A stretch of DNA of 62,114 bases from Candidatus Aminicenantes bacterium. Its GTDB lineage: Bacteria; Acidobacteriota; Aminicenantia; Aminicenantales; Aminicenantaceae. A program made the position numbers and the translations under genes. The notes under the pieces were generated by a model, which had not been told where the DNA came from, made no database searches, and worked only from the letters and a program-made list of their open reading frames with translations. Shown here piece by piece: positions 722-61,875 of this stretch. The stretch lies in NCBI GenBank assembly GCA_011773465.1, contig WVXO01000012.1, positions 2,368 through 64,481 on the forward strand, written 5' to 3'. Numbering within the stretch: the stretch's first letter is position 1; every line of letters starts with the position of its first letter.

Positions 722-907
722 TCCCTCCTCTTGCTTATTATTTTGTAGTATTATAATAAATAAAAAAATTCAAAATCTTTCTGACCTTTCTTTATTTTTC
801 AGCCGTCGAAGAGTTTCCAGCTTCTAGGGCACAGCGATAATCGATAGTAAGAAATTTGAAACTCTTTCATGCTTGTGATATTTTTAGTAGTAGAAAAGAG
901 TTTAAGA

Positions 908-2950: not shown

Positions 2951-3028
2951 CCAGATTTTTCAGACATCAATAATTGATGAAAAAGCTAATAATAAAAACA
3001 TAAATATGAGACAGTTAGGGAGGAAACT

Positions 3029-3943: not shown

Positions 3944-3955
3944 GAAGGAAAAACG

Positions 3956-24919: not shown

Positions 24920-25618
24920 TCAAACGCCTTCGATTCTGACTTCTGAAAAATAGGGCTCAGCAATCTTGGCTAATCCCTGAACCTCTTCGCGACGATAAGG
25001 CTTTTTTTGAAGATAATGACTATCCATGGTGTTTAAGGGAACGAATTGCTGTAGCTGGAAAATATTTGCTCCATCGAGCATCTGACAGATTTTTTTGATA
25101 TCTTCCGGTCCTACAAGACCAGGTACCAAAGTGGTCCGGAATACATACCCAAGGCCTGAATTTTTGATGATGTCAACGCTTCGGACAATGTCCTCTTGAT
25201 TCACCGTGGCTCTGGTTACCTCTCGATATCGCGTTAACGGAGCCTTCACATCCATGGCGATATGATCAATGAGTCTCTTCTGAATGAGATCTTCAAGCCT
25301 TGAAGGAAAGGAGCCATTTATGTCGACCTTCACTAAAAGGCTCCTATCTTTTATGAGAATAAGCAAGGTTTCTAGATCATCATGAAGCAGTGGTTCTCCG
25401 CCGGAAATACAGATGCCCTCAAGCCAGCCTTTTCTCAAATCAAGGAAGCTGAGGAAATAATCCAAGGGAAACGTGGGCAGAATCTCCGGCCGAAGCACCA
25501 GATCCGCATTGTGGCAAAAGGGACATCTGAAGTTACATCCGCCCAAAAACACAGTTGAGGAAATATGCCCTGGAAAATCTTTCGGGGCAAATTTTTCTAG
25601 GCCTTTGATCTCAACCAA
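24920..25618 (-). CDS. nrdG: Anaerobic ribonucleotide reductase activating enzyme (radical SAM)
   Basis: DFPG...GCNFRCPFCHN, ISGGEP, AMDVKAP, FRTT; adjacent to nrdD. Confidence 0.93.
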   Translation of the reverse strand: MVEIKGLEKFAPKDFPGHISSTVFLGGCNFRCPFCHNADLVLRPEILPTFPLDYFLSFLDLRKGWLEGICISGGEPLLHDDLETLLILIKDRSLLVKVDINGSFPSRLEDLIQKRLIDHIAMDVKAPLTRYREVTRATVNQEDIVRSVDIIKNSGLGYVFRTTLVPGLVGPEDIKKICQMLDGANIFQLQQFVPLNTMDSHYLQKKPYRREEVQGLAKIAEPYFSEVRIEGV

Positions 25619-25863
25619 TCCTCTAGCTCCGTACGGTTATTTAACACGGTAACAACTTCTCCATTCTCCTGAAGGACTAAGGTGGGGATGATGATTGCTC
25701 CTTCATCATCTCGTTTGAGAAAGTTTAGAAACTCTCTTATTTTCAGCCTGTTTTCTTTAAAAACAAGGTTACATTCCCGTACCTTAAAATCAGCCCCTCC
25801 TAAATATTTCTTTATTTCGTCGCATTTTGAACAATTTGGATAGGTAAAAAGGAAGTATTCCAT
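25597..25863 (-). CDS. Small glutaredoxin/NrdH-like redoxin
   Basis: FTYPNCSKC (CxxC) and IPTLV (cis-Pro motif); lies between nrdD and nrdG. Confidence 0.75.
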   Translation of the reverse strand: MEYFLFTYPNCSKCDEIKKYLGGADFKVRECNLVFKENRLKIREFLNFLKRDDEGAIIIPTLVLQENGEVVTVLNNRTELEDWLRSKA

Positions 25864-25866
25864 CGT

Positions 25867-48657: not shown

Positions 48658-49521
48658 GTGAAAATATTTAAGAGAGAAAAAGATTTCAGCGCCATATTTC
48701 TTGTCGCACTCCTTATCTTATCCTGCGGCATCTTTATGAGTCTAAAAGTTAAAACCGATAATATTTACCGCAAAAAAATCCCTGGCTCTTCGATCATCTA
48801 CATTCCCTCAGGGCAATATCTCAAGTATGCTACTTTTGGCAATTCCTCTCTCCTGGCAGACCTTATTTACATCTGGTCTATCCAGTACTACAGCGACTAC
48901 ACTATCCCCGACATGTATGAATATCTAGATCATATTTTTTCAATCATAAACGAGCTAGACCCCGGCTACCTAGATCCATACGATGTCGGAGCTGTGATCG
49001 CTGCTTATGAAGCTAGAGATTTGGATCTAGCTTTTAAAATCCTGGATAGAGGCCTGGAGAAAAATCCGGAGCAGTGGCTTTTTCCCTACATGGCAGGCCA
49101 TTATGCCCAGATGATAAGGAAAGATCATAAGCTGGCTCAAGAGTACTACAAAAAGGCGATGAATATTGAGGGAGTTCCGCCCATTGTGAAGCGGCTTTAC
49201 GCTGACGCAATCTTCAAGTCCATGGATTATAAAAGAGCCCTGCAGACCTGGCTTGAAATCTACGAGACAGCAAAGGATGAAAGAACAAAAAAAATTGCTT
49301 CAAACCACCTGTATAATATCAAGGCTACAATAGATATCGAGAAGATAAATGGAGCCATCGAGAAATTCAAAGAGAGATACGGCCGTAATCCAATGGAACT
49401 ATCCCAGCTTGTTAGAGCCGGATTCCTTGATTCTCTGCCAAAGGATTTAGATGGAAAGGAATATATTTATGATTCCCGGACTGGAGAAGTGAAGCCCCCA
49501 ACAATCCCATGGAAACGATAA
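48658..49521 (+). CDS. Pilus-associated membrane-anchored TPR-like protein (PilG-like)
   Basis: N-terminal TM; LADLIYIWSIQYY, ELDP, RGLEKNPEQW; C-terminal GspG-like RYGRNP..LSQLV..GFLDSLPKD.DG..Y.YD. Confidence 0.65.
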   Translation: MKIFKREKDFSAIFLVALLILSCGIFMSLKVKTDNIYRKKIPGSSIIYIPSGQYLKYATFGNSSLLADLIYIWSIQYYSDYTIPDMYEYLDHIFSIINELDPGYLDPYDVGAVIAAYEARDLDLAFKILDRGLEKNPEQWLFPYMAGHYAQMIRKDHKLAQEYYKKAMNIEGVPPIVKRLYADAIFKSMDYKRALQTWLEIYETAKDERTKKIASNHLYNIKATIDIEKINGAIEKFKERYGRNPMELSQLVRAGFLDSLPKDLDGKEYIYDSRTGEVKPPTIPWKR

Positions 49522-50285
49522 TCATTATAGCCTGCTTCGGCCTTGCTTGGGGAAGCTTCCTCAACGTGGTGATCTACCGCCTTCCCCTCAGAATGAGCCT
49601 TTTCAAACCTTCATCCTCTTGCCCCCACTGTAAAGAGAAGATAAAATTCTATGACAATATTCCTGTTCTTTCTTTTTTGCTCCTTCGAGGGAAGTGTCGC
49701 CATTGTAAAGGGAGAATTTCTCTAAGATACCCTCTGGTAGAGATATTGACCGCTGTCTGTTTTCTTCTTCTCTACTCCAAGCACTCGTTGAGCTTCTTTT
49801 TCTTTGCCTCCTGTGTATTTGTTTGCGCCTTGATCGCTTTAGGCTTTATCGATTTTTACCACCAGATACTTCCTGACGAGATAACTCTCTCCGGGTTGTT
49901 ACTGGCCCTCATCTACTCGCTTTTCCGCGAAGATTTAAACCTGAGGCAGGCCCTTATAGGGGCTGTGGCTGGAGCTGGATTTTTACTTTTCATCTACGTC
50001 GCTTATTATCTATTGCGCAAAAAGGAAGGGCTTGGGCTGGGAGACGTGACCATGATGCTTTTAATCGGAGCTTATTTAGGCTGGCGGCAGGCTTTTTTCA
50101 CCCTGATCTTGGCTTCCTTTGTCGGAGCCTTGGTTGGAATCTTCTTTATTTTCTACAGAAAGAAGGACTTTCAGTATTCCCTTCCGTTTGGGACCTTTCT
50201 TGCCCCGGCCGCATTTGCCGCACTTCTCTGGGGAGAAAGAATAATAAGTGCCTATTTGAGCCTTTTCAAGAATCTGACCCCTTGA
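49509..50285 (+). CDS. pilD: Prepilin peptidase (A24A)
   Basis: GSFLNVVIYRLP, CPHC/CRHC, YPLVE, FIDF..QILPD, GLGLGD, PFGTFL. Confidence 0.96.
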   Translation: METIIIIACFGLAWGSFLNVVIYRLPLRMSLFKPSSSCPHCKEKIKFYDNIPVLSFLLLRGKCRHCKGRISLRYPLVEILTAVCFLLLYSKHSLSFFFFASCVFVCALIALGFIDFYHQILPDEITLSGLLLALIYSLFREDLNLRQALIGAVAGAGFLLFIYVAYYLLRKKEGLGLGDVTMMLLIGAYLGWRQAFFTLILASFVGALVGIFFIFYRKKDFQYSLPFGTFLAPAAFAALLWGERIISAYLSLFKNLTP

Positions 50286-50358: not shown

Positions 50359-51639
50359 TTAAAATGTGGCTGGGATTACTTCTTGCCAGGATTTGATTTT
50401 AAAAGGAGTGTCATCAACGCCGTCAAGAGCTAGGGCAGCTAAAGCCAGGTCGTAATGAATTTTTGAGTTGGAATCACACTCAAAAGATTTGGCCGAGATA
50501 GAACCGTAAAAATCGGCATTGCTGTTGAAATGCACGTCGGCTTTGGGCACGTAAACAGCACCCCAAAATTGGGAATTGGAATTCCACTCCATTTCTCCGT
50601 TAAAAGTATCTGTGCCCAGTATCAGGAGATTGGTAGGGTCTTCGGATAAATTATTGATTTGAGTGTTGCTGTGTTGGATAAAACTTCCACCAAGATAAAT
50701 TGTGACCTTAACTCCAGGGGCAATTTCAAGCTGCGAATTGCTGCGCATGGCGAATTCGCCTGTCACATAAAGGGATACATCAGCCGCAATTGTTACCGTA
50801 CAGTTGGAATCTAGCCTGAAAGAGGTATATACGCCGCTTTCGTCTATTGTATCCGAGTCGTTACCGCCAAGAGAATAGTCACCACTATAAAGGAGGTCTT
50901 CAGGAAGAGGAACTGAAGGCATATCATTGGGCTCGGATAAAGAATCCATTTCTCCAAATATTTCAGCGTTGCCCCGGGTTATTATCACATCCTCCGGAAT
51001 GGTCTCAGGCCCTGATAAAGCATTCCCGTAGATTCTGGCGTTTGAGTCTAAATCAATACAGCCATAATGAGTGCCGTTGGTGCCCACATGTCCTTCAGAA
51101 CCCATGTTCGAGCCGCCATAAGCCCCGTCCCTGGAGTCATAACTATCTACATATGCGTTTGAAGCGAAGTCCAATTCTTCATCGCCAAAAATTCCGTTAA
51201 TCCAGGGTTTATACTTCTCTTCTTCCAAGACTATTCTGGCGCACTTGGATAATACTCGAGACTCAACCATGGCTACTCTGCCTAAAGACGATATAACAGG
51301 ATACTCTCCATCAGGATCTTCAACCCTAATTTCGATATCCCCGATCACATTGCCATCTGGAGTTTGAAAAGATGAAATGGTCATATTCCTCAGGGAGCTA
51401 TCTCCATCCCAGGTCGTGATATCTCCATAATTCAGTTCCCAGATAGCTCTCTCAACCCCAGCTTCAGCCAGAGAGAGGGCTGCGGAAGATTTGTAAGATT
51501 TAGTGGTGAGCTTATTCTCAAAAGAGAGTTGGTATAAAAAAGGAATAGCCAGAAGAAGCAAGAATGACATGACTACCAAACCAACAATCAGGACAAAGCC
51601 TTGTTCCTCACCTTTCCTTTTTAAATCCTTTTTCATCAC
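50359..51639 (-). CDS. PilX-like minor pilin with C-terminal beta-solenoid domain (paralog 3, SN ladder)
   Basis: EQG|FVLIVGLVV (no Glu5), ALSLAEAGVERAIWEL, DSYDS..G.Y, GAVYVP.A, IHYDLAL, KIKSWQE. Confidence 0.8.
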   Translation of the reverse strand: MMKKDLKRKGEEQGFVLIVGLVVMSFLLLLAIPFLYQLSFENKLTTKSYKSSAALSLAEAGVERAIWELNYGDITTWDGDSSLRNMTISSFQTPDGNVIGDIEIRVEDPDGEYPVISSLGRVAMVESRVLSKCARIVLEEEKYKPWINGIFGDEELDFASNAYVDSYDSRDGAYGGSNMGSEGHVGTNGTHYGCIDLDSNARIYGNALSGPETIPEDVIITRGNAEIFGEMDSLSEPNDMPSVPLPEDLLYSGDYSLGGNDSDTIDESGVYTSFRLDSNCTVTIAADVSLYVTGEFAMRSNSQLEIAPGVKVTIYLGGSFIQHSNTQINNLSEDPTNLLILGTDTFNGEMEWNSNSQFWGAVYVPKADVHFNSNADFYGSISAKSFECDSNSKIHYDLALAALALDGVDDTPFKIKSWQEVIPATF

Positions 51640-51824
51640 CTCTTTTGCTTTCCCAATCCTTTGTTTCCTTTTCTGTATTAATCAGCACTGTTTTAATTGT
51701 TTGGTAAAAAAAAGTTTATCACCCATTGCAGCTGATTTTTACGGTTATTTTTTCCTATCTCCATCGCCTTTTGAGGCTAATCTATTTGATGAACTGATTG
51801 CGTGTTTGCGATCTATTCCTAACC

Positions 51825-53141
51825 CTAGTCGGAAACTTTTATTTGCCAGGATTTGACTATGTACAAAGATCCCATCGAAGGAAGAATTTCAAGATCTTCT
51901 AAAGCCTTATCATAATGCAGTACCGTGTCTTGATCAAAAAGGACATTGTTAGCTATTATAGCGCCATAAAAACCGTCTGCCTGATCCAATTCCACAAAAG
52001 CATTAGGCGCATAAATTGCCCCATAAAACTCAGAATTTTGGTCAATATAAATATCTCCTGTAAAGCTTTCTGTTCCAAAAAGCACAAGCTTGGTTGGATC
52101 TCGGGATAGATTGTTCATACTAGACGTCTGGTCCATCTCAAAGGTTCCACTCCCCATGATAATCTGAAGGCTTGCGCCGTCAGCGATATCAAGCCTTGAA
52201 TTCTGGTCCATGTAGAAATCGCCTGTTATGTAGAGGATAACATCATCTTCAATTGTCACTATGGAGTTTGCTTCCATCGTGAAAGAGCCATATTGGCCGC
52301 TCAAGAAAATCGAATCCGTGCCGCTCATCGAATAATCACCCACCCAGAGAAGTCCGCTAGGAGGAGTAATCTGAGGGAACTCTATCGGAACGGTCAATGC
52401 CCGCTTTTCACCATCAATATGGGCGCCGGGAGCAGTTATTATAACCGATTCTGGGTCGCTCTCATAACCAGATACTGCATCGCCGGCTAAATCAGAACTA
52501 TTGTCCATATAAATAGCACTAAAACTGACCGAGTTAGTTCCGATATCTCCGTCCGAGCCCGAATTGCCGGGATTGCTATAGTCTCCATTCCTTGAATCAT
52601 AACTATCGATATATACTTGCCGGTCGATCATTATTCCATCATCCCCAAAAGCTGCAAACTTAAAAGGAGGAAATCCACCCAACTCTGATCTCACTGTCCT
52701 CACCACTTTTTTGTCCCCAACATACAAAACTGTACCCCTTGATTCCACAATAGGATGATCTGCAGTAGGATACACAACCTTTATCCCCACATCGCCTATC
52801 ACACTCCCTCCAGAAGCCTGGAAAGAAGAAATGTCCATAGTACGCAAGGTATCATCACCCGTCCAGCTCGAGATGTCTCCATAATTCAACTCCCAGATAG
52901 CTCTATCAACTCCAGCTTCAGCCAAAGAGATGGCTGCAGAAGATTTGTAAGACTTATTGGTGAGCTTATTCTCAAAAGAGACTTGGTATAAAAAAGGAAC
53001 AGCAAGAAGAAGCAAGATTGCCATAACTACCATACCAACAATCAGGACAAAGCCTTGTTCCTCATGCCTGCTTTTAAAACCCTTGCTTATAACACTTTTT
53101 CTTTGAACATCGTTGCTTTTTGTCTCATCCATTTTGCTCAC
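51825..53141 (-). CDS. PilX-like minor pilin with C-terminal beta-solenoid domain (paralog 2, DQ ladder)
   Basis: EQG|FVLIVGMVV, AISLAEAGVDRAIWEL, DSYDS, GAIYAPNA, LHYDKAL, VKSWQ. True start may be ATG at 53132. Confidence 0.8.
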   Translation of the reverse strand: MSKMDETKSNDVQRKSVISKGFKSRHEEQGFVLIVGMVVMAILLLLAVPFLYQVSFENKLTNKSYKSSAAISLAEAGVDRAIWELNYGDISSWTGDDTLRTMDISSFQASGGSVIGDVGIKVVYPTADHPIVESRGTVLYVGDKKVVRTVRSELGGFPPFKFAAFGDDGIMIDRQVYIDSYDSRNGDYSNPGNSGSDGDIGTNSVSFSAIYMDNSSDLAGDAVSGYESDPESVIITAPGAHIDGEKRALTVPIEFPQITPPSGLLWVGDYSMSGTDSIFLSGQYGSFTMEANSIVTIEDDVILYITGDFYMDQNSRLDIADGASLQIIMGSGTFEMDQTSSMNNLSRDPTKLVLFGTESFTGDIYIDQNSEFYGAIYAPNAFVELDQADGFYGAIIANNVLFDQDTVLHYDKALEDLEILPSMGSLYIVKSWQIKVSD

Positions 53142-53153
53142 CTTTTTTTTAAT

Positions 53154-53193
53154 AATTTATCTCTCATCTTCTGCTGAAAAGATGATGATAAAT
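53154..53193. terminator. Intergenic hairpin between pilW2 and pilX2 (terminator or attenuator candidate)
   Basis: AATTTATC-tc-TCATCTT-ctgctgaa-AAGATGA-t-GATAAATT. Confidence 0.35.
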
Positions 53194-53207
53194 TCACCAA
53201 TTCTCCC

Positions 53208-53831
53208 TTAATCAGATTTGTTCCTCAGCTTTACTCCAGTCTTAAGAGTCTCCTGGAAAGTGCGACCCAACAGATTCTGAGTCGTTATCAAGGTGATATC
53301 CACGCAGGCAACTTGACTGAAATCAGCTACACCAGAAAGCTCGACTCCTGCAGAGCTTAACTGAAAAGAATTCACTCTTGTGGCTATGGTTCTGCTACTG
53401 TCTGCCCTGCTGCTAACCCCATCATTGGCATCAATAATTCTTTCTAACCGGTTAGGATATTCAGAATTGAGACGATAGACTATATAGTCAAACTGACTAC
53501 TAATATCGATTATGATACCATTAGAATCCAACGAGGGAACTTGAAGAATAATACATTCTGTGGAAGTAGCATAGACATCCCAGCTCGGCACAACTTGGAT
53601 CGCCTCTTTTATATCTCGAGAGATATAATTGAGCACATGCCTGTTATCCCGAAGCACATCAGACCTTGCGCTTCCGTTCATATAATATCTCTGTCCGGCA
53701 ACATAGAGAGAAAGCATAGCCAGGATCATAAAAGAGACAATGGAAACTGTTATCAAGACCTCAACAAGGGTAATGCCCGTTGGCTGGAATTTTCTCTGCT
53801 CGGATTTCCTGGATTTTTTTAAAATCATCAC
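53208..53831 (-). CDS. PilW-like minor pilin (cluster 2)
   Basis: PTG|ITLVEVLIT prepilin motif; ISRDIKEA; C-terminal VKLRN. Confidence 0.85.
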   Translation of the reverse strand: MMILKKSRKSEQRKFQPTGITLVEVLITVSIVSFMILAMLSLYVAGQRYYMNGSARSDVLRDNRHVLNYISRDIKEAIQVVPSWDVYATSTECIILQVPSLDSNGIIIDISSQFDYIVYRLNSEYPNRLERIIDANDGVSSRADSSRTIATRVNSFQLSSAGVELSGVADFSQVACVDITLITTQNLLGRTFQETLKTGVKLRNKSD

Positions 53832-54259
53832 TTTCTATTGATCCCCTTCCTGGTTATAAAAGTAACCACATCCTTACGCATCTGCGTTTCCCTGTAAGTC
53901 CAGAAAACACTCACAGTTAGTTTTTTGATGTCGTCTCCTAAAGAATCTTCGACATTTACGGCTCCAGTGCTGTTTTCCAGGAGAGAGAGACTTTCGTTCG
54001 TAAAAGAACTGTCAAGAGTTAAAATATCATTAAAAGACATGTTCCGAATAAGTTCTAATTCTTCTTGAATGGCTTGAGTGGCAATGGCTATTTGTTTCAT
54101 TCTGGAAAGGACGTTAAAACCATGGAGAAAACAGCTAAGGAGAGCAATTAAAACCAGGGCTAAGATCACCATGGTGACCAAAACCTCGATATAAGTAAGT
54201 CCCTCTTCTCTTTTTTTTCTTTTGACGGCTGCGCCTTTTCTCTCTGCTGGTTCCTGCAT
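53828..54259 (-). CDS. PilV-like minor pilin (cluster 2)
   Basis: EEG|LTYIEVLVT; AIQEELELIR; KKLTVSVFW. Start at 54259 after AAGGAGG (ORF track 54277). Confidence 0.85.
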   Translation of the reverse strand: MQEPAERKGAAVKRKKREEGLTYIEVLVTMVILALVLIALLSCFLHGFNVLSRMKQIAIATQAIQEELELIRNMSFNDILTLDSSFTNESLSLLENSTGAVNVEDSLGDDIKKLTVSVFWTYRETQMRKDVVTFITRKGINRK

Positions 54260-54277
54260 ATTATTTTCCTCCTTCAA

Positions 54278-54796
54278 CTAGATAGTGCTTCCATGTACAC
54301 GAGATGTTGGAATTTGCTTTTGGGGAAAGGAGCATACCCAGTTATATCCACTCTTTTCTAATCCCACTCTGGTGGTTCTCTCCAAATACACTCTGGCAGT
54401 CTTGCCTTCTGCGAGAGGGCTAGTATAGGCTACTCGACCAGTAGACCTCACTTGAGGATTCTCTCCCTCAAGATCTTCAATCCTTATCTTGATATCCCCG
54501 ATCACCTCGCTGGCAGGAGCTTGATAAGAAGAAATAGTCAGTGTTCTCGATGTGCTATCCCCTTTCCAGGTTGAAATATCCCCATAATTCAGCTCCCAGA
54601 TCACTCTCTCTACTCCAGCTTCAGCCAGAGATAGAGCAGCAGCGTAATTGGCAGATTTATCAGTGACCTTGTTCTCAGGAGATTGCTGGAATAGATGCGG
54701 AACAGCAAAAACAAGCAAGAATGCCAAGATGGTCAGTCCGATAATCAGGAGGGAACCATCCTTTCGTCCTCTTTCAATTTTTATTATAACTTTCAT
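54278..54796 (-). CDS. Short PilX-like pilin (paralog 1) without the C-terminal solenoid
   Basis: KDG|SLLIIGLTI; ALSLAEAGVERVIWELNYGDISTWKGD nearly identical to paralogs 2 and 3; ends soon after STGRV. Confidence 0.75.
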   Translation of the reverse strand: MKVIIKIERGRKDGSLLIIGLTILAFLLVFAVPHLFQQSPENKVTDKSANYAAALSLAEAGVERVIWELNYGDISTWKGDSTSRTLTISSYQAPASEVIGDIKIRIEDLEGENPQVRSTGRVAYTSPLAEGKTARVYLERTTRVGLEKSGYNWVCSFPQKQIPTSRVHGSTI

Positions 54797-55158
54797 CTCC
54801 TTAGCCTCCTAACGTCCCTTTTATTGTAACTACTGTTTTAGTCGGAGAAGAAGGCTAAAAGTTCATCATCTTCGGAGGCGATTTTTATGATGATCTTTAT
54901 ATCACCCCCCATACCTCCGACGACTAATCAACTTAATGACAGGGTGAAGAGGTTCTTAAGAGAAACGTATGAAGGAGAAGAAGGGGAAAGATAAAAAAAC
55001 TACGTTTTTTGTGCCCCTATTTTTTATAATAATAAAAAAATAGGGAATATAGAGATCTGATTTTGTGGTAAATAATGACTAAAATTTGGGCAATAATGCA
55101 AAACAGGGACTAACCACTTTCTTTGGAATGGCTAACCAAATTGGAATTAAAAAAAAAT

Positions 55159-55232
55159 GGGGACAGTCCCCTTTGTTGGGACAGCCCCCCTTTCAGGGAC
55201 TGTCCCTCTATCCCCATTTTTGGGACTGTCCC
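55159..55232. repeat. Cluster of four GGGACWGTCCC-type palindromes directly downstream of pilY1
   Basis: GGGGACAGTCCCC, GGGACAGCCCC, GGGACTGTCCC twice; flanked by A-tract and T-tract, so it could act as a terminator. Confidence 0.7.
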
Positions 55233-55239
55233 TATTTTT

Positions 55240-58200
55240 TTATCTGAAGATCCTGTAGACTTCTCTCCAGGATTTTACTTTGAGCATAGAAGTGCCTAAC
55301 TGCTCCAGCTTCTGAATAGTCGAATCATACTCTTGAATATAAACCTCTCTCTTCCGGGCACCACCCGAAGCTCTCTCTCTTTCACCTATGGTAACCGCTG
55401 CTCTTGTCTTTATGGCCAGGTCCAGGCTCTCTTTAGGACCGGTGGCTGTTTCAAAGGCCGTTCCACCAAGGGTGGTTCCAGCTTCAGCTTGGATATATCT
55501 TGCATAAAGCTTTCCCACACCGGTTATGCTTTCGCAGGGATCAACACTATCAATACTTCCTGTTAGGGTACTAAAATAAACAACGTAATCAGCAACTTTA
55601 GGATCTGCCCACACCCTCTCTCCAATGCTGATATCGCCCATATCTTTTTCTGGTGGCAGAGCTAGTATGGCATTGTTGCCGAGATACCATTCTACCTCAG
55701 GAATAGGAGAATCCTTAAGTGCAATAAAAGAGTAGACTGCATCACTCGGAGCTCTATCATCGCCCCCTGTCCCAAAATACAGACGGGGGATGGGTCCTCC
55801 TGAAACATAATCAACCCAGACAGCTGGTTTGCTTATAATCGGATAATTGTTAGAGTCTTTATAGATTGTCACCGCGGCCCAAGAAGTGGGATCTTGATAT
55901 TCTATACTCACATCTACTTTCCACATTCTTCCATCCAAATCTGCCACATAGACTCTATCTACATAACCATCTTGATCGATATCGATTATCGTAGGAGATC
56001 CAGGAATGGTGTTAGGAATGTTCCAGCCTAAAGCAGCTGTAGTGTCCACTTCCGGTGCATAAAACGCCCAGAAATATTCCCCTGTCTCCGCGTCTACTGC
56101 ATAAAAAACATTGCCGACAACTTCGCTCGGGCTATTATCATAGCCAGATCCCATAAAGGCAAGCCAAGCGTCCTCTCCGTTGCTTCGGATTTTACCCGTT
56201 ACAGGCACAGACCAGCTTTCTCCCAAAAAGTCATGAGTGAACTCCCAAAGCGGCTCAGGACTATCAGGATCAGTAATATCCAGGGCAAAGTAATAATTTG
56301 TTCCTCCTCCGATGCCGCTTCCTTTACCAGCCCCCTGACCACAGATAAGAATCGTTGTCCATTCTTTGCTGGCATCTCCGTTAACATCTATGTAAACATC
56401 GGCAACCATCGGGCTCCCGTCGACATAAATATCTCTGGCAAAGTACCTCTCTCCTGTTACCTCTGCGACTGCCCATATGTTCTTCATCTTGGGAAGAAGA
56501 TTATAAGGGATAAAGCCCCACAACTCTTCTCCTGTAAGAACATCAAAACAATGAATCATTCCGTCATTCGATCCTACATAAACCACCTTTCGTCTGTCTG
56601 CCCAGGTGTTCATAAACTCCTCGTATCCGTCTCCCATAATAACAGGGGCTTCATCTGGGGGACCGACAACAACGGGATTGGAATGGTTGCTGTCTCCTAG
56701 TTTCCACTCGCGCCCTTCTCCTCTTATAAAATTTATCAATCCTTCATTATCGTTGTTTACATCCTGTAGAATCGGCCCCAGGATAGCCACATTGGAAACA
56801 TTGAAGTCGATTCTTGTTAGAACAGAACCCTCGGCAATGGCCGTGTATATTGTTCTGGTGGCAGCTGAGCGGGCATTCAAGAGCTCTCCCGCGTCCCAGA
56901 CAACCTCCACGCCGGAAGGAACAATCTCTCTTCCTGAAGGCTGGGTTAAATCCTGACGACTCACTGTCCTGAGAACAGAGTAAGCTGTGGTCTCAGGAGT
57001 CATTGCGGTTAAATCATATGCTCTTAGATGTCCGTTCCAGGTCGGAAAGAAAAACGTGCTGGCCAGGAGATATTTTTTCTTCTGATTGCTTTCATCCACA
57101 ACATTGGTTACCACAACAGAGGTTCGAGAGTATTCTTTTTTGTCGACAAGAGTATATGCGAATGTAATCTGGCTAATTATGGGAGAATCGAATGATGCGC
57201 CCGAATATTCTTCCATCGGATCCTCGGGGGCGGTCATGATGGCTTTCCACCTGAGGTGGGAACCAAAGTGTTTAAACGCGTGTATGGGTAGATTATTGTA
57301 ATTTTGGATATCACTTCCCTCAAAAGTTGTGTAATACTCCCAATCTTTTCCGTTATTATTGGATAGATAGTATTCCACTTTAAGGCCGGCTGCGGACGTG
57401 CCTCGAATCTTCTGGCTGAGTCTTGTAATCTGCACTTTGGTTATGGCATAGAGCTCGGGATCCAATGCCCCTGAAATATCAGTAGACCAAGCCTCTCCGT
57501 AGGTGGTATAAACATTGGCTAATTCATTCCTAGCCAGATAATAATCTCCTGAATGGTTGGCATCTGCAAAAACCCAATCAACATCTCCGTCCATGTCAAA
57601 ATCCACGGATATGCCCATATCCACATCATGATACTTTTCATCAACACCATCACCATCACCATCCCTATAAATTGGAGGTGTAATCGGCAGACAATCATTT
57701 AAGCATTCAAATTGGAAGTTAACGGGAATACCTTCGATTTCTGCAAGTCCCTTACTTCTATACATCCACATCCTGGCATCATTCCCTGCGTTCCATACAT
57801 CATTGGAACACATTAGATCGAGCCATCCATCTTGATTAAAATCACCAGCACAGGTCGCAACTGCACCTATACAATCAGGATTGGGAATCAGAAGTTCATG
57901 ACGAGTGAAGTATCCAGTCCCATCATTCTCATAAAAAACTAAAAAGGGAATAGCTTCCACTGTACCGGCGATAACATCTATATCTTCGTCGTTATCCCAA
58001 TCAGCAGCCTCAATAGTAGAGCCTCCCATGTCTATCGTAAAACCTGGTGGTTGGTCATAATTAAGTTCAACTATGTCAAAATTAGCTATATCAAAACTTC
58101 CTGTTCCGGGATTCCTCACGAGAAATATTTGATTCTGACTGATAACCAATACATCTACATCTCCATCTTTGTCTATATCTACAGAACAAAGGTGGTCAGC

Positions 58201-58896
58201 AGACCATCGACAGTAAATCCCTTCAGTCTCGAATCTGCTTGTAAAATCCAAGTTTGGAGAAGAACCATGGGGATAAAAATCTGGATCAGTTGCTGTTCCC
58301 ACATTGATATACATGGCAGCCACAAATTTATCGTAAATTGCATCGTCGCTATCATTCTTATAGAAGAAAAAATCAATTAATCCGTCATTGTTGTAATCTG
58401 CGGTGGTTATAGAAGCTGGCCCCGCATCTAAGCCTGTCTCATAGATTTCGCTCTCATCTGTCTGAAAAATAAGGCCATCATCATCTAATCCATCATTATT
58501 AAGGTCTTCAAATGTATTTCTTACAAGAATCAATACATAACGCCTATCTGTGATACCTGGATCTGGATCCATATCTGTGATATCCAGACCAATCAAATCA
58601 GGAAGACCATCACCATCAAAGTCACCGGCATCACAGACATAAATTTGTGATCCCATCCCCGTGGGTGCTGTAATCTCCAAGTTGCCCCCCAACCAGTTCA
58701 GCGTTATCGGTCCAGGAGGCCAGTAGGCGACTGAAGTGTGGTCCGTGTCTTTATAATCTTCTGTGTTGAAATTTTCGGTAAAAATTCCTCCTACATATTC
58801 TACACAGCCTTCCTGAGCCCAAAACTTCACAGTGAAAAAGCAGATCAGTATGACTAGCGGCAAAAATAGCAGCATGGTTTTCTTTCTTTTATTCAT
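55240..58896 (-). CDS. pilY1: PilY1/PilC tip adhesin with N-terminal FG-GAP/VCBS-like repeats
   Basis: Signal peptide; DFDGDGLPDL, DYNNDGLIDF, DIDKDGDVDV, DWDNDEDIDV, DFNQDGWLDL repeats; C-terminal LGDSNHSNP, VYVGSNDGMIHCF, ELWGFIP, YVDGSP, YFALDITDP, Ca loop DIDQDGYVD, SWRE. Confidence 0.9.
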   Translation of the reverse strand: MNKRKKTMLLFLPLVILICFFTVKFWAQEGCVEYVGGIFTENFNTEDYKDTDHTSVAYWPPGPITLNWLGGNLEITAPTGMGSQIYVCDAGDFDGDGLPDLIGLDITDMDPDPGITDRRYVLILVRNTFEDLNNDGLDDDGLIFQTDESEIYETGLDAGPASITTADYNNDGLIDFFFYKNDSDDAIYDKFVAAMYINVGTATDPDFYPHGSSPNLDFTSRFETEGIYCRWSADHLCSVDIDKDGDVDVLVISQNQIFLVRNPGTGSFDIANFDIVELNYDQPPGFTIDMGGSTIEAADWDNDEDIDVIAGTVEAIPFLVFYENDGTGYFTRHELLIPNPDCIGAVATCAGDFNQDGWLDLMCSNDVWNAGNDARMWMYRSKGLAEIEGIPVNFQFECLNDCLPITPPIYRDGDGDGVDEKYHDVDMGISVDFDMDGDVDWVFADANHSGDYYLARNELANVYTTYGEAWSTDISGALDPELYAITKVQITRLSQKIRGTSAAGLKVEYYLSNNNGKDWEYYTTFEGSDIQNYNNLPIHAFKHFGSHLRWKAIMTAPEDPMEEYSGASFDSPIISQITFAYTLVDKKEYSRTSVVVTNVVDESNQKKKYLLASTFFFPTWNGHLRAYDLTAMTPETTAYSVLRTVSRQDLTQPSGREIVPSGVEVVWDAGELLNARSAATRTIYTAIAEGSVLTRIDFNVSNVAILGPILQDVNNDNEGLINFIRGEGREWKLGDSNHSNPVVVGPPDEAPVIMGDGYEEFMNTWADRRKVVYVGSNDGMIHCFDVLTGEELWGFIPYNLLPKMKNIWAVAEVTGERYFARDIYVDGSPMVADVYIDVNGDASKEWTTILICGQGAGKGSGIGGGTNYYFALDITDPDSPEPLWEFTHDFLGESWSVPVTGKIRSNGEDAWLAFMGSGYDNSPSEVVGNVFYAVDAETGEYFWAFYAPEVDTTAALGWNIPNTIPGSPTIIDIDQDGYVDRVYVADLDGRMWKVDVSIEYQDPTSWAAVTIYKDSNNYPIISKPAVWVDYVSGGPIPRLYFGTGGDDRAPSDAVYSFIALKDSPIPEVEWYLGNNAILALPPEKDMGDISIGERVWADPKVADYVVYFSTLTGSIDSVDPCESITGVGKLYARYIQAEAGTTLGGTAFETATGPKESLDLAIKTRAAVTIGERERASGGARKREVYIQEYDSTIQKLEQLGTSMLKVKSWREVYRIFR

Positions 58897-58932: not shown

Positions 58933-59544
58933 TCATGTTCCTGGTCGTTCAAGGACCAATTCTATTTCTAACCTTGTTGTCGTAATAGTATTCCCTATCT
59001 CAACACTTCCGATGCAGACCAAAATAGCATCGGTAGGATCAGGGATTCCCACGGCGGCCTCATCGTCAATCAAAAACGCAGTGTACCTGTAACGATTGTC
59101 CAGGCCGCTCTCGGTTTGAATATAGGGCTGTCGACAAAAAATAACGTTTACCAGATTAGATGTCCCATCCCAGTCTGAATCAATCAGGTTCAGAAGTTCT
59201 ATATCGCTTAATCTTCTAAAATAATTATCCGCTTGAGGATTATCAATCCCTATAGGTTCAACGACATAATGTCCTTCAAAATGAGCCCATTCGCCAATGC
59301 CAAAATATTCTTCGATATTTGTCCAGGCCACATCAAACCCTGCTTCAGCAGCATTATAAGCCTGCTGTTGAGTCCGAATGTTTCCGGCTACCTTTGGACC
59401 GGTGCCTGTCACCTGAAGAAGCACAAGCCCGACGACTTGCAGAAATGCCAGCACAATGACGACAATAATTAAGGCCATTCCCTTCTCATGTTTCGAAGCT
59501 GGCAATTTATGGTTTATTTTCAGAGATCTCTTTTTTTCCTTCAT
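58933..59544 (-). CDS. pilX: PilX-like minor pilin (cluster 1)
   Basis: EKG|MALIIVVIV (no Glu5), QAYNAAEAG. Start at 59544 (ORF track 59667). Confidence 0.85.
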   Translation of the reverse strand: MKEKKRSLKINHKLPASKHEKGMALIIVVIVLAFLQVVGLVLLQVTGTGPKVAGNIRTQQQAYNAAEAGFDVAWTNIEEYFGIGEWAHFEGHYVVEPIGIDNPQADNYFRRLSDIELLNLIDSDWDGTSNLVNVIFCRQPYIQTESGLDNRYRYTAFLIDDEAAVGIPDPTDAILVCIGSVEIGNTITTTRLEIELVLERPGT

Positions 59545-59554
59545 TCTATCCTCT

Positions 59555-60778
59555 TTACATCGTGCCGCTGTTATATACGCCCAAGGACATATTCCTGATT
59601 TGAGCCGTTGACTCAAGCAAAAATCTTCTGTGTTTATCCGGCTGAGTTTGCTCAGGAGAATCAGCAATAGCGGGCTTCCCGTAGAGTTTTATCACTTCAT
59701 CTGGGGGAGCTCCTGTAAAACTAGCATAAGGATTAGCAGTTTTGCCCAGAATTAATATTCTTACAGAGCGAATTCCTGCTACCACCAAAGATTTACTTGT
59801 AAATTCTTTGCTTACAACTTCTTCTTCGTCGTCTTCTACCGGAAAGGGAAGATCAACCCAATTCTGGAAATCATTCACATCGACTGTCCCGTCGCTGTTG
59901 TTGTCATCAAGCTGTTGGTCGTCATTAATATCACCATGGAATTGGAACTGGAGATCTTCGATATTCTGGGCAAGGGCCAGATGCTCGTAACCATTAACCA
60001 GTGGATTCCATTGAGATACATACAAAACTCCTGGGACCCCTAAGTAGCCGTCTGTTCCGGTAATGCAACCCGGATAGTTGCCGTCAACATCAAGCCAGTA
60101 CGTTCTAAACTCGATAAAATGAACAGTGCCTCCGATGTAATCAGCTGGATCCCCTCCAACGGTCAATCCGTTCGGCAGCTTTGCGTTTGCCGGATCGACC
60201 CGCTCAAACGTGATTGTGTTGGCTATAAAGTCTACGGCGGTCATTCGACCGACTTCTCCTTTTCGCTTGTTTAATTCGGGATTGGGAAGAACAATGATTA
60301 ATCTGTTTATGAAACCTACAGGATCATCAGGATAGGCATTTGTATTATAAGGATAAATCTCAAACTGATTTGGTTCAACGGTAATAATGTTTGAACCGGG
60401 AGCAAAGCTTTGAATGAACAGCCTTAAAGGGTCTGCGTTTCCAAGGATTGTTAACCTATCAGGATAAGTTAGCGGACCGCCTTTACTGTCGTTGTTTTCT
60501 GCCTGAACAAAATAGCCAGCAAGTTGCTGAGGCAAGCCTGCTCCAGCGGATTTTATATCTCTGGAGATAAAATACATAGCGGCCCGAACATCGTGCTGAA
60601 GCTCTGCAAATCCCTGCTGGTCGACTGATACTGCGTTGCTCTTCGTGTAGAGAGCCAAGGTTGCGACAACAATAGTCAGCATGATTAAACTGCCGACTAA
60701 AACCTCTACTAGAGTGAACCCGCGTCTAGAAGAAACGCTTAAAGATGAAAACCTTCGATTTGATATTTTGGCTTTCAT
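59555..60778 (-). CDS. pilW: PilW-like minor pilin (cluster 1)
   Basis: RRG|FTLVEVLVG; RAAMYFISRDIKSAG; LAQNIEDLQF; IRSVRI; QIRNM. Confidence 0.88.
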   Translation of the reverse strand: MKAKISNRRFSSLSVSSRRGFTLVEVLVGSLIMLTIVVATLALYTKSNAVSVDQQGFAELQHDVRAAMYFISRDIKSAGAGLPQQLAGYFVQAENNDSKGGPLTYPDRLTILGNADPLRLFIQSFAPGSNIITVEPNQFEIYPYNTNAYPDDPVGFINRLIIVLPNPELNKRKGEVGRMTAVDFIANTITFERVDPANAKLPNGLTVGGDPADYIGGTVHFIEFRTYWLDVDGNYPGCITGTDGYLGVPGVLYVSQWNPLVNGYEHLALAQNIEDLQFQFHGDINDDQQLDDNNSDGTVDVNDFQNWVDLPFPVEDDEEEVVSKEFTSKSLVVAGIRSVRILILGKTANPYASFTGAPPDEVIKLYGKPAIADSPEQTQPDKHRRFLLESTAQIRNMSLGVYNSGTM

Positions 60779-60815: not shown

Positions 60816-61319
60816 TCACCTGCTTATAACCGTGCCTATGTCAGCTCGGACTTGATAATAGGATGGATTGGCGATAAGATTATCCAGCGCCGCTTGCGCC
60901 TGGACTGCTGGGAAGACCAGAACTCTCACGTCCCAATAAAATCCTGAGGCTGCGATCTGAGTTATTCTTCTGAAATCAACCGTTCCATCGCTATTGATAT
61001 CCATTAGTTCATCAATCGGACTCAAGGATAAGTTATGCAATTCATCGGCTGATAAGTTCCTCAGAAAGTCAATCTGTTGCTGAGCTAAAAAAGTTGCATT
61101 AGTCATTGCGTCTGAGCGAGCATTATTCATCACGCTCAAGCAGAAAAGCTGGGCCAATCCTAATAAGGCAACACCCACAAGGGCTATCCCCACCACAATT
61201 TCTATCATAGAAAAACCCTTGTTTTTAGCATCATCCCTGGAATTATTATCTAACGATCCCTCACTGGGAATCTGTGATTTTTTATCAAAAATTTCTCTCT
61301 TATTAATCATTTTATTCAC
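60816..61319 (-). CDS. pilV: PilV-like minor pilin (cluster 1)
   Basis: NKG|FSMIEIVVG; ATFLAQQQIDFLR. True start may be ATG at 61310. Confidence 0.85.
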   Translation of the reverse strand: MNKMINKREIFDKKSQIPSEGSLDNNSRDDAKNKGFSMIEIVVGIALVGVALLGLAQLFCLSVMNNARSDAMTNATFLAQQQIDFLRNLSADELHNLSLSPIDELMDINSDGTVDFRRITQIAASGFYWDVRVLVFPAVQAQAALDNLIANPSYYQVRADIGTVISR

Positions 61320-61875
61320 CTTCAGCTACTATGTATTGAATTGAGCCCCCGGCTATCACCTTAATAACTCTCTGGTCAGGTTTGCCATAGATTGCTAATT
61401 TAAGACTCTTGAAAGTGATGCTGTTTTGTGTGGAGCTGTAGTTTGCAACAAGACCCAATGGTGAGAATTCGACAGTCTCATTCGGAAAATTGACATTCAC
61501 TTGAAATTCACGTGGGATTGATTTTTTTATGAATCCACGCATTATATTCCACTGGGTCGGATTATCTTCTCTTTCAATAGAATAAATCCAGCCTTCACCC
61601 ACAGCCTCAAACCTCACCCTATGGTTCAATTTTGTTTTAACAGCCTGAAATTTTGCCCTTTGTAAAGTTGTCAGGACTCCTCTTGCTGAACCCTCAATCT
61701 TTCTTGTCTCCAAAGTGTTCAGGATGTTCGGATAGAATATTAAAGCCATGATGCCTATTATCGCTACGACTGCCAGAATCTCAACCAAGGTGAAGCCTTT
61801 TTGAGCAGATGTAGATTTATCCCTGGTATTTGCTTTTTCGTGTTTGTGCTTAGAAATTCTTGATATATTGTTCAT
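61312..61875 (-). CDS. fimT: FimT/FimU (GspH-like) minor pilin
   Basis: QKG|FTLVEILAV; LQRAKFQAVK; VEFSPLG; VIKVIAGGSI. Confidence 0.85.
   Translation of the reverse strand: MNNISRISKHKHEKANTRDKSTSAQKGFTLVEILAVVAIIGIMALIFYPNILNTLETRKIEGSARGVLTTLQRAKFQAVKTKLNHRVRFEAVGEGWIYSIEREDNPTQWNIMRGFIKKSIPREFQVNVNFPNETVEFSPLGLVANYSSTQNSITFKSLKLAIYGKPDQRVIKVIAGGSIQYIVAEGE

Follow-up and report, generated by a model that had tools for sequence, protein, structure and literature searches.

A locus from an uncultured Aminicenantes-like bacterium raises the question of what tip a type IV pilus gene cluster with three PilX-like genes and no PilY1 of its own may build directly beside a cluster that has PilY1. 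In the window, i.e., the whole stretch of 62,114 nt analyzed here, all tip genes lie on the minus strand: cluster 1, fimT-pilV-pilW-pilX-pilY1 (61875-55240), is followed after a gap of 443 nt by cluster 2, consisting of X1s, V2, W2, X2, and X3, with neither a PilY1 nor a FimU/GspH-type gene of its own within the window. Re-inspection bore out the gene order and coordinates of a first-pass annotation, and the PilX motif that it had described as shared was found in X1s, X2, and X3. The features are as follows.

49509..50285, plus strand: prepilin peptidase PilD (PF06750 122 bits, PF01478 72 bits), convergent with X3
50359..51639, minus strand: X3, putative cap pilin, 426 aa (PF23981 81.1 bits; AF2 pLDDT 88)
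51385..51615, minus strand: 5' conversion tract in X3, roughly 230 nt (residues about 9-85)
51825..53141, minus strand: X2, putative cap pilin, 438 aa (PF23981 77.1 bits, pAdhesive_15 28.6 bits)
53208..53831, minus strand: W2, GspJ/PilW-position minor pilin, 207 aa, Glu5 (N-terminal matches only, all below cut-off)
53828..54277, minus strand: V2, small GspI/PilV-position minor pilin, Glu5 (N_methyl 21.1 bits, cut-off 21.2)
54278..54796, minus strand: X1s, putative solenoid-less PilX/GspK-type cap pilin, 172 aa (conserved tail SGYNWVCSFPQ)
55108..55243, minus strand: GGGACAGTCCC-type palindrome array plus T-run, directly 3' of pilY1
55240..58896, minus strand: PilY1 adhesin, 1218 aa (PF05567 62.8 bits; FG-GAP_3 70.9 bits)
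58933..59667 as listed ORF, minus strand: PilX of cluster 1, PilXc1 (PF14341 PilX_N 31.2 bits, cut-off 25.5)
59555..60778, minus strand: pilW-like minor pilin of cluster 1, 407 aa (named by position and size)
60816..61319, minus strand: pilV-like minor pilin of cluster 1, 167 aa (N_methyl 25.7 bits)
61312..61875, minus strand: fimT/GspH-like minor pilin, 187 aa (N_methyl 31 bits; IV_pilin_GFxxxE 33 bits)

In cluster 1, the matches of the fimT-like protein to GspH (17.9 bits) and of the pilV-like protein to type_IV_pilV (25.9 bits) were below cut-off, and the pilW-like protein reached 20.2 bits against N_methyl (cut-off 21.2) with a weak match to PilW (E 0.078). The listed PilXc1 ORF overlaps pilW1 by 113 nt; its real start is probably an internal ATG near 59547, and the ortholog in a related locus (L013) begins at the internal Met. 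The C terminus of PilXc1 immediately follows the final strand. PilY1 carries FG-GAP repeats in its N-terminal part and the PilY1 propeller in its C-terminal part; its KSWRE tail lies 11 residues before the C terminus. W-R-E is a tail motif known for PilC/PilY proteins (PMC13711793), where, according to the available parts of the literature, it is the docking strand (PMC13711793; PMC12918778). The palindrome array with its T-run is probably the terminator between the two clusters, as a consensus match only; the region contains no excess of such sites (5 versus 4.8 in shuffles).

V2 and W2 both carry Glu5, which is kept in 12/12 aligned V2 orthologs and 11/11 W2 orthologs, and both genes are under purifying selection (dN/dS of 0.25 and 0.17, respectively). 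V2 probably starts at an ATG at about 54259 (its Atlas record begins at residue 7), and its matches to the gspI and pilV models were below cut-off. The W2 family comprises 986 representatives (E<=1e-10); N_methyl was present in 25 of the 41 members scanned, with no other Pfam domain. Matches of V2 and W2 to HpsB/HpsC were weak and below cut-off. Since the globular domains matched no named family or solved structure past the N-terminal helix, the I and J roles of the two proteins rest on gene order, size, and Glu5.

Unlike V2 and W2, the proteins X1s, X2, X3, and PilXc1 have no Glu5; position -1 is a Gly, the helix after it is hydrophobic, and +5 is occupied by I or V. These features agree with the earlier description of the X proteins as PilX-like tip subunits and support their classification as putative PilX/GspK-type cap pilins, while searches of X1s, X2, and X3 against the PilX_N and T2SSK HMMs gave no match at E<=0.1. 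X1s is 56% identical to X3 (140 aa) and 50% identical to X2 (127 aa).

Both long proteins harbor a DUF7305 beta-solenoid (PF23981; Pfam cut-off, 27 bits), located at about 51897-52649 in X2 and at residues about 146-405 (nucleotides about 50425-51204) in X3, and pAdhesive_15 was matched alongside it in both. The AF2 model of X3 comprises a helix (residues 3-70), a four-strand sheet (83-140), and a terminal strand (413-421, KSWQE); the terminal strand of X2 reads KSWQI. In the model, the solenoid is placed between the fourth pilin strand and the terminal KSWQ strand. The idea of a head fused to PilX thus holds as far as a beta-solenoid of the ice-binding/adhesive type is concerned, but this domain is an insertion that precedes a conserved terminal strand, not a simple appendage. 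Likewise, X1s indeed lacks the C-terminal domain, but those of X2 and X3, previously described as divergent, are homologous (42% identity, compared with 61% for the N-domains). The solenoid parts are acidic, both with a pI of 4.05 (K+R 11 and 13, D+E 44 and 44). The X2 ortholog in L003 (phmmer E 8e-251; 86% identity by tblastn) gave a dN/dS of 0.17, and among 32 close X3 orthologs conservation was 0.89 in the solenoid versus 0.91 in the pilin sheet, with no sign of rapid surface diversification of the solenoid.

X1s is preceded by a strong AGGAGG ribosome-binding site and has 51 homologs, 37 of them with 172-175 aa at 57-100% identity. Its dN/dS was 0.23 against L003 and 0.23-0.35 across three orthologs. 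No match to Pfam or NCBIfam was found, and its AF2 model (pLDDT 77), which combines a helix with four long strands and one short one (152-155), had no match among PDB structures at E<=0.001.

The terminal strand links the two clusters. The pattern [KR][ST]W[QR][EIVL] occurs three times in the 24,667 residues of the window ORFs, once each at the C-terminus of X2, X3, and PilY1; among 28 long X proteins examined, 20 terminate in SWQ. Beta-strand complementation has been described in trans for the PilC/PilY1 tail and in cis for GspK and CpaL (PMC12918778, PMC13711793, available parts). As in that PilK/GspK scheme, PilY1 ends in W-R-E and X2 and X3 end in a nearly identical W-Q-E in cis, and X1s resembles the engineered CpaL "delta-middle" variant, which consists of the pilin domain plus the last strand. 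Unlike there, a putative trans form (PilXc1 plus PilY1), a short cis form (X1s), and cis forms with solenoid (X2, X3) lie adjacent in a single natural locus. Strand pairing in the X proteins is predicted here from single-chain models only.

The conserved 5' regions of X2 and X3 had been proposed to permit recombination. A repeat search returned a 300-nt family at 51295-51594, 52749-53048 (80%), and 54452-54751 (73%), and the longest exact X2/X3 match was 31 nt, so that the reported DNA similarity is real. Within the 5' tract of X3, whose partner in X2 spans about 52839-53069, nucleotide identity was 0.85 and third-position identity 0.83, compared with 0.41-0.49 at third positions downstream. 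Codons for the same residue were identical in 46/58 cases in the 5' block versus 64/134 elsewhere (Fisher p = 3e-5), an excess indicating DNA similarity beyond protein constraint. Together, third-position identity and the codon test make past gene conversion between the two 5' blocks detectable. The solenoids belong to old, separate lineages: in the tree, L007_Xc and L001_X fall together with that of X3 (support 0.97) and L003_X2 with that of X2 (support 1.0).

A survey of related loci confirmed the expected variability, with long X genes ranging from one (L003, L009, L011, L012, L015, L025) to two (window, L002) and three (L007). The order V2-W2-X was found in L001, L003, L007, L011, L012, L015, and L025 as well as in L023 from Omnitrophota, and pilD follows the final X gene in seven loci (L002, L003, L007, L009, L012, L015, L025). 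The PilY1 cluster was seen in just three of the loci, including the window. Cluster 2 is therefore not the accessory "second" set it had been taken for: V2-W2-X is what recurs in Aminicenantes-type loci.

Taken together, we favor, with a probability of about 0.6, the reading that cluster 2 encodes a module initiating the tip of a type IVa pilus independently of PilY1, in which V2 and W2 would form a platform for alternative X caps. The X protein, of the PilX/GspK/"PilK" type without Glu5, would be the first and topmost subunit. In the long caps X2 and X3, the terminal KSWQ(E/I) strand would complete the cap's own sheet in cis, a step performed in trans by the PilY1 KSWRE tail in cluster 1; X1s would be the same cap minus the solenoid. 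Because a pilus has one tip and the X proteins lack Glu5, X1s, X2, and X3 would be alternatives on a single platform. We infer their assembly with V2/W2, their mutual exclusivity, and the adhesive role of the solenoid.

The three X genes might instead encode redundant caps that give the same assembly and no functionally different tips. In Synechocystis, the PilX paralogs look redundant rather than specialized: double mutants transform at wild-type level, and the triple mutant alone is nontransformable (PMC13759059, available part). Moreover, the X2 and X3 solenoids share Pfam family and acidity, and one long X gene suffices in most related loci. However, both old solenoid lineages have been retained, each is conserved among its own orthologs despite the low mutual identity, as is usual with divided functions, and the headless X1s is nonetheless conserved. 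We therefore consider redundancy unlikely.

Somewhat less probable is a V2/W2 platform common to both clusters, taking X caps or PilXc1-PilY1, or an X1s able to take up the tail of PilY1; either would make PilY1 another interchangeable head on one base. The order V2-W2-pilXc1-pilY1-X(long) in L013, where fimT1, pilV1, and pilW1 were undetected over the 3.7 kb preceding V2, and the near identity of the KSWRE tail to the cis strand of X2/X3 would fit. L013 is, however, a single metagenome-assembled contig with an N-run just ahead of the X gene, and the window holds a full V1/W1 set for PilY1. In addition, X1s has its own conserved tail, with the modeled strand at 152-155, and in L014 it comes after a response-regulator gene and not after pilY1.

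It is very doubtful that X2 and X3, rather than being adhesins, serve a competence pilus as DNA receptors in the manner of ComZ. A Foldseek search with the X3 model had ComZ (6qvi) as top match (E 9e-7, probability 1.0), and ComZ 6qvi accounted for three of the four PDB chains matched at E<=0.001, the fourth being an ice-binding protein. For ComZ, DNA binding at the tip of the pilus has been described (PMC6561018, available part), and cyanobacterial PilXCom caps act in DNA uptake (PMC13759059, available part). Against this, the TM-score to ComZ was low (0.26-0.30, at about 10% identity), the PDB sequence search gave no match and thus no sequence-level likeness to ComZ, and Pfam groups the solenoid domain with ice-binding-like adhesive domains. 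ComZ binding also requires lysines (PMC6561018, available part), whereas the solenoids here are strongly acidic.

A type II secretion-like pseudopilus rather than a surface pilus is highly improbable. In T2SS, too, the order is I-J-K and the K subunit is completed in cis (PMC12918778, available part), and among the distant relatives that the N-terminal motif brought in are true T2SSK proteins (L034, L036, L040). Yet related X genes adjoin pilB-pilT-pilC-pilS-pilR-pilin (L010) or stand in the order pilC-pilB-...-secretin-tilS-V2-W2-X-pilD (L012), no GspC/L/M-type genes were seen among the loci scanned, and large solenoid heads have so far been described for pilus tips. Finally, although X1s comprises the N-domain alone, which forms a sister group to the X3 lineage (support 0.94), its reading as a functionless, truncated relic or decayed pseudogene is contradicted by its 51 homologs, monophyly (support 0.997), conserved tail, low dN/dS, and strong ribosome-binding site.

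Caps that contain their own head and have exchangeable paralogs, as first suggested for this locus, are already published for cyanobacterial PilX (2026; PMC13759059, available part) and match the work on beta-strand complementation. Cyanobacteria are stated there to be generally without PilY1, PilX solenoids are proposed as its replacement, and any one of three paralogs suffices; the proteins compared are PilXCom, PilXEPS/HpsA, and Synechocystis PilX1-3 and PilA12. As in these proteins, an ice-binding-like solenoid interrupts the pilin fold between the penultimate and last strands, and one core minor-pilin set can work with several paralogs. The present locus differs in phylum and Pfam family (DUF7305, no HpsA match), in its tandem paralogs beside V2/W2, in the adjoining PilY1 cluster, and in its conserved solenoid-less paralog. 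Thermus thermophilus ComZ (PDB 6QVI), argued to be tip-located, also has its solenoid inserted after the penultimate pilin strand and ahead of the last one (PMC6561018, available part) but differs in the structural, sequence, and charge properties given above. Myxococcus xanthus, too, has multiple gene sets for tip complexes, interpreted as different pilus tips, but each of its clusters comes with a complete pilin set and a PilY1 of its own (PMC13190605), whereas cluster 2 multiplies the cap gene alone.

Under the favored reading of cluster 2 as a PilY1-independent module, the resulting pili would end in one of two solenoid heads, A or B, or have a bare tip, and cluster 1 nearby would supply a PilXc1-PilY1 tip. 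As the solenoid-bearing cap design has been described for cyanobacteria and Thermus (2019-2026), the locus adds a new example of it with some local peculiarities and does not define a kind of system of its own.

The two minor-pilin clusters lie on the minus strand of the window (G+C, ~42%), whose proteins are, among named relatives, closest to those of Candidatus Aminicenantes MAGs, and are followed by a convergent prepilin peptidase gene.

Minor-pilin clusters and adjoining features
61875-55240, minus strand: cluster 1, with a fimT/GspH-like pilin, pilV-like and pilW-like genes (pilV1, pilW1), a PilX (PF14341; here PilXc1) and a 1218-aa PilY1
Gap between the clusters, 443 nt: opens with GGGACAGTCCC palindromes and a T-run
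54796-50359, minus strand: cluster 2, with X1s (172 aa), V2 (149 aa), W2 (207 aa), X2 (438 aa) and X3 (426 aa)
49509-50285, plus strand: pilD, prepilin peptidase gene, convergent with X3

The gene set and the motif shared by the three PilX-like proteins X1s, X2 and X3 are as the first-pass annotation had described them, and its interpretation of cluster 2, modular PilX tips with a built-in adhesin instead of PilY1, found support in part. Immediately 3' of pilY1 lie three or four palindromes of the GGGACAGTCCC type, accompanied by A/T runs (55108-55243; repeat families D4, I1, I3, and I6), which are probably stacked terminators but could be a repeated element. Scans for sigma-70 promoters and terminators gave counts not above those in shuffled sequence, with the hairpin after pilY1 as the sole notable site. 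Sigma-54 promoters were rejected (16 matches to the consensus versus 22 expected, none of them in the gap upstream of X1s), as were invertible or phase-variable elements, since the repeat search turned up no inverted repeats on either side of a promoter or gene segment. The listed starts of the pilXc1 and V2 open reading frames are probably too far upstream; pilXc1 (58933-59667) overlaps pilW1 by 113 nt and has a likelier start near 59547, and the Atlas record of V2 (53828-54277) begins at the ATG of residue 7. Elsewhere, two GWxTD-domain proteins and TPR proteins are encoded at the start of the window (869-5413), and the anaerobic ribonucleotide reductase genes nrdD and nrdG (24920-27939) are consistent with an anaerobic lifestyle.

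In type IV filaments, absence of Glu5 marks the GspK/PilX-type subunit, which is assembled first, at the tip. All four X proteins of the window have a prepilin leader with Gly at -1, a hydrophobic alpha1N, and no Glu at +5 (G/SLLII in X1s, G/FVLIV in X2 and X3, G/MALII in PilXc1), and Glu5 is kept in 12/12 aligned orthologs of V2 and 11/11 of W2. Furthermore, X genes lie 3' of the I-type and J-type genes (V2-W2-X) in the window and, among the related loci listed from a genome-contig scan (L numbers), in L001, L003, L007, L011, L012, L015, L025, and the Omnitrophota locus L023; X1s, upstream of V2, breaks this order. X1s, X2, and X3 have their N-terminal 130 to 140 residues in common, including the shared motif, with 50 to 56% identity between X1s and the long forms and 61% between the N-domains of X2 and X3. 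PilXc1 matches PF14341 (PilX_N), and neither this model nor the T2SSK/GspK models matched X1s, X2, or X3 at E<=0.1. Sequence and profile searches of the PDB with X3, X1s, V2, W2, and the wider W2 family returned only N-terminal pilin helices; X3 had 0 matches to PDB sequences at E<=10, hence no detectable homology to ComZ, and no HpsA model was among the NCBIfam matches. We therefore assign X1s, X2, and X3 as putative caps by their leader type, gene order, and predicted fold, and not by an HMM.

The AlphaFold2 model of X3 (16-row alignment, pLDDT 88) consists of a helix (3-70), four strands (83-140), a beta-solenoid (~150-400), and a final strand (413-421). A Foldseek search of the PDB gave four matches at E<=0.001, namely, three ComZ chains and one ice-binding protein; the best match was to the competence pilin ComZ of Thermus thermophilus (6qvi; E, 9e-7; TM, 0.26-0.30), and ranks 4 to 17 were ice-binding or antifreeze proteins. 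X1s was modeled (pLDDT 77) as a pilin fold with strands at 83-149 and a short extra strand at 152-155, and its model had 0 PDB matches at E<=0.001. In both proteins a small pilin sheet completed by the terminal strand is predicted, a strand pairing that we infer from the models. A complex prediction of V2 (52-149) and W2 (45-207) with X1s (37-172) as partner reached a median score of 0.26 against a mark of 0.32, which speaks neither for nor against binding.

The first-pass annotation regarded the C-terminal domains of X2 and X3 as divergent; they are only 42% identical but nevertheless homologous, as both match Pfam DUF7305 (PF23981; 77.1 bits for X2 and 81.1 for X3, cut-off 27) and pAdhesive_15, the "putative ice-binding-like adhesive domain" (28.6 bits for X2 and 26.6 for X3, cut-off 23.8). 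PF23981 is present in 119 of the 120 X3 homologs listed. The solenoid parts of both proteins are acidic (pI 4.05; 11 and 13 Lys plus Arg versus 44 and 44 Asp plus Glu), which argues against the DNA binding through lysines that ComZ, the best structural match, would suggest. A surface- or cation-binding head fits these sequences better and agrees with the "adhesive" label given by Pfam. Among 32 close X3 orthologs, the mean majority-residue frequency was 0.89 in the solenoid versus 0.91 in the pilin sheet, and no hypervariable solenoid surface was seen; with a solenoid about as conserved as the sheet, each paralog lineage looks functionally stable.

V2 and W2 gave only N-terminal pilin matches in Pfam, NCBIfam, the PDB, and the Atlas, those to family models being below cut-off, and the ESM Atlas placed both just in unnamed N_methyl clusters. 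A W2 profile searched against 1.84 billion representatives found 986 at E<=1e-10, i.e., a large family without a name. Among 41 of the 150 W2 relatives listed, Pfam detected N_methyl in 25 and PilW or T2SSJ in none, so that neither the profile nor this sample yielded a sequence link to PilW/GspJ. Assignment of V2 and W2 to the GspI/PilV and GspJ/PilW positions is thus a putative one, resting on order, size, and Glu5. A Verru_Chthon cassette (TIGR02596/02599/02600) was rejected (W2, 30.9 bits versus a cut-off of 256.5; PilXc1, 12.7 versus 332).

Of 158 candidates between 94 and 301 aa in length, 51 were homologs (E<=1e-3) of X1s, the paralog without a head, and 37 of these 51 measure 172 to 175 aa (57 to 100% identity). 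Decay to a pseudogene, a possibility raised in the first reading of the locus, is contradicted by these homolog lengths, by the conserved tail SGYNWVCSFPQ, by an AGGAGG ribosome-binding site, and by dN/dS values of 0.23 versus L003, 0.35 versus L014, and 0.27 versus L001; the comparison genes V2, W2, and X2 gave 0.25, 0.17, and 0.17 versus L003. The X1s proteins form one monophyletic group (support 0.997), with the N-domains of the X3 lineage as its sister (0.94); X1s arose from an X3-like cap through solenoid loss. The gene is present in L001, L003, and L014 and was not found upstream of V2 in L007, L009, L011, L012, L013, L015, or L025. A role as strict companion of PilY1 is weakened by L014, in which X1s follows a response-regulator gene and not pilY1. 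Three homologs of X1s (54278-54796), P0158, P0160, and P0161, are 183 to 185 aa long and have, immediately past the transmembrane helix, an NKVTD-like pentapeptide-decapeptide in one or two additional tandem copies.

The similarity of the X2 and X3 5' regions at the DNA level, already seen at first reading, was confirmed by a 300-nt repeat family (51295-51594, 52749-53048 at 80%, and 54452-54751 at 73%) and a longest exact X2/X3 match of 31 nt. Across X3 residues 9 to 85, DNA identity between the two genes is 85% and third-position identity 83%, and the latter drops to 41 to 49% downstream of this block. Where X2 and X3 encode the same residue, the codon is identical at 46/58 positions in the 5' block versus 64/134 elsewhere (p = 3e-5). 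Furthermore, the X2 ortholog of L003 is matched in the 5' block as closely by X3 (43/54) as by X2 itself (47/65), and in the solenoid tree X3 groups with L007_Xc and L001_X (support 0.97) and X2 with L003_X2 (1.0). Because its 5' block is X2-like while its solenoid groups with L007_Xc and L001_X, X3 is a mosaic, in which an X2-type 5' end was joined to an X3-type body or the exchange ran the other way. The suggestion that the 5' blocks could recombine thus finds a record of past recombination in the window. General 5' homogenization of tandem paralogs was rejected; only two of nine tested within-genome pairs of long X genes (window X2/X3 and L017, the latter with synonymous homogenization of 20/22 versus 87/176) show it and seven do not, i.e., it is sporadic.

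The scan behind the related loci gave at least 601 stretches fitting the search patterns, of which 54 were confirmed, in at least 49 loci, mapped with phmmer and tblastn using the window proteins and with Pfam. In seven loci (L002, L003, L007, L009, L012, L015, and L025), pilD comes after the last X gene. L012 has the order pilC, pilB, four small genes, secretin, tilS, V2, W2, X, and pilD; secretin and tilS lie upstream in L002 and L007 as well, and the X gene of L010 adjoins pilB, pilT, pilC, pilS, pilR, and a pilin gene. Judged by this synteny of V2-W2-X with pilD, pilB, pilC, and secretin, cluster 2 is no add-on; it is the minor-pilin set that recurs for the type IVa pilus machine across these Aminicenantes-type loci. 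A PilY1 cluster was found, among the matches listed, only in the window, L003, and, in part, L013. The number of long X genes varies between related MAGs, as anticipated at first reading, with one in L003, L009, L011, L012, L015, and L025, two in the window and L002, and three in L007. The closest relative among the matches listed, L003 (dS 0.3-0.7), has X1s, V2, W2, and X2 and no X3. In L013:3773-10513, on a single MAG contig with an N-run (9959-9973) before X, the order is V2, W2, pilXc1, pilY1, and long X, and the 3.7 kb upstream contain no cluster 1 fimT, pilV, or pilW. Here a PilX-PilY1 pair appears to be inserted between W2 and the solenoid cap, which hints at a single V/W pair that can accept either type of cap.

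Several loci differ in other respects. Elusimicrobia loci (L029:349-2979, L032, L035, L039, and L042) have a V-position pilin of 830 to 876 aa, with CarboxypepD_reg and other Ig-like domains in L029, and after it a W-like gene and an X-like gene for ~430 aa; in these loci it is the I-position subunit, not the cap, that carries the extra module. Planctomycetota (Sedimentisphaerales/Pirellulales) loci L016, L017, L021, and L027 have DUF7305 X genes, in tandem or as pairs, whose products terminate in KRW(S/Y)E, and phmmer detected no V2- or W2-like gene in them. The pilus secretins of L012:4547-6691, L007:1666-3807, and L002:616-2754 (712 to 714 aa) combine a TPR region at the N-terminus with a cohesin domain at the C-terminus. 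Short contigs labeled Candidatus Cloacimonadota (L014) and Desulfobacteraceae (L006) carry X1s-V2 and W2-X2 genes 63 to 87% identical to those of the window, and the taxonomic labels of these bins may be wrong for them.

The PilY1 of cluster 1 (55240-58896) has FG-GAP/VCBS-type repeats in its N-terminal half and a PF05567 C-terminal propeller (62.8 bits, cut-off 28.1), and it matches the Neisseria PilC model weakly. Better-studied PilY1 proteins carry vWA or DUF4114 domains. Its tail KSWREV, situated 11 residues before the end, is also conserved in L003 and L013. The C-terminus is KSWQI in X2 and KSWQE in X3, and in PilY1 it is KSWRE with hydrophobic residues after it. The pattern [KR][ST]W[QR][EIVL] occurs at three sites in the 24,667 residues of window open reading frames of >=100 aa, and these are the C-termini of X2, X3, and PilY1 only. 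An SWQ strand stands at the extreme C-terminus of 20 of the 28 long X proteins examined, including those of Omnitrophota L023 and Armatimonadota L030; together with the order of predicted secondary structure in X3, this conserved strand supports the modeled X2/X3-type architecture. A 580-aa protein, L018:8669-10411, combines an X-type N-domain and terminal VSWQEK with a middle of ~400 aa that has no Pfam match, and appears to carry a different module at the same insertion point.

According to PMC13711793 (2026), the PilC/PilY tail is conserved, with Trp followed by Arg, Glu, and hydrophobic residues, and augments the PilX sheet. In systems without PilY1, as described in PMC12918778 (2026), a PilK-type pilin provides the strand itself, and a CpaL variant minus its middle region still allows some piliation. 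Read against the strand-complementation model of these two sources, the X and PilY1 termini of the window would represent three cap states. PilXc1, which ends immediately after its last strand, would be completed in trans by the PilY1 tail; X2 and X3 would be completed in cis, after the solenoid head; and X1s would be completed in cis with no insert and no head. We consider it possible, with a chance of roughly one in five, that this one locus is a natural series of all three cap completions, in which near-identical KSW(R/Q)E strands would let heads swap on a common V/W platform, as the gene order of L013 hints, so that the cell would mix adhesive, bare, and PilY1 tips, and 5' gene conversion would keep the platform-facing part of the cap compatible.

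The core of the idea put forward at first reading, i.e., a cap whose own head replaces PilY1 and exchangeable paralogs on one core set, is already published for cyanobacteria (PMC13759059, 2026). As stated there, an ice-binding-like solenoid separates the penultimate strand from the last one in every cyanobacterial PilX homolog and is proposed to assume the capping role of PilY1, and any one of PilX1, PilX2, and PilX3 is enough for competence pili in Synechocystis. Several minor-pilin/PilY1 clusters give different tips in Myxococcus (PMC13190605). A literature search found no use of DUF7305 by name, no study of Aminicenantes pili judged by titles among the 8 listed of 9 matches, and no further work on solenoid PilX among the 3 listed of 5 matches to that topic. 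The local twists are that genes stand in tandem beside V2/W2, that a PilY1 cluster is present alongside, that a headless paralog is conserved, that the termini share a KSW(R/Q)E strand, and that the 5' blocks show conversion.

The design is instantly recognizable to a specialist, and its value lies in the natural series of trans, cis-short, and cis-solenoid caps for testing the strand-complementation model. The headless cap, headed caps, and PilY1-dependent cap would be natural counterparts of hand-made beta-strand complementation constructs, and the window proteins, among which X1s, V2, and W2 are currently without informative family names, form a convenient set for structural tests of tip-complex licensing. 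With this locus, the recently described solenoid-capped tip would reach beyond cyanobacteria and Thermus into an uncultured, anaerobic lineage of sediments, with relatives in Omnitrophota and Planctomycetota, and on the predicted structure DUF7305 would acquire a definite function, that of head domain in a PilX/GspK-type cap.
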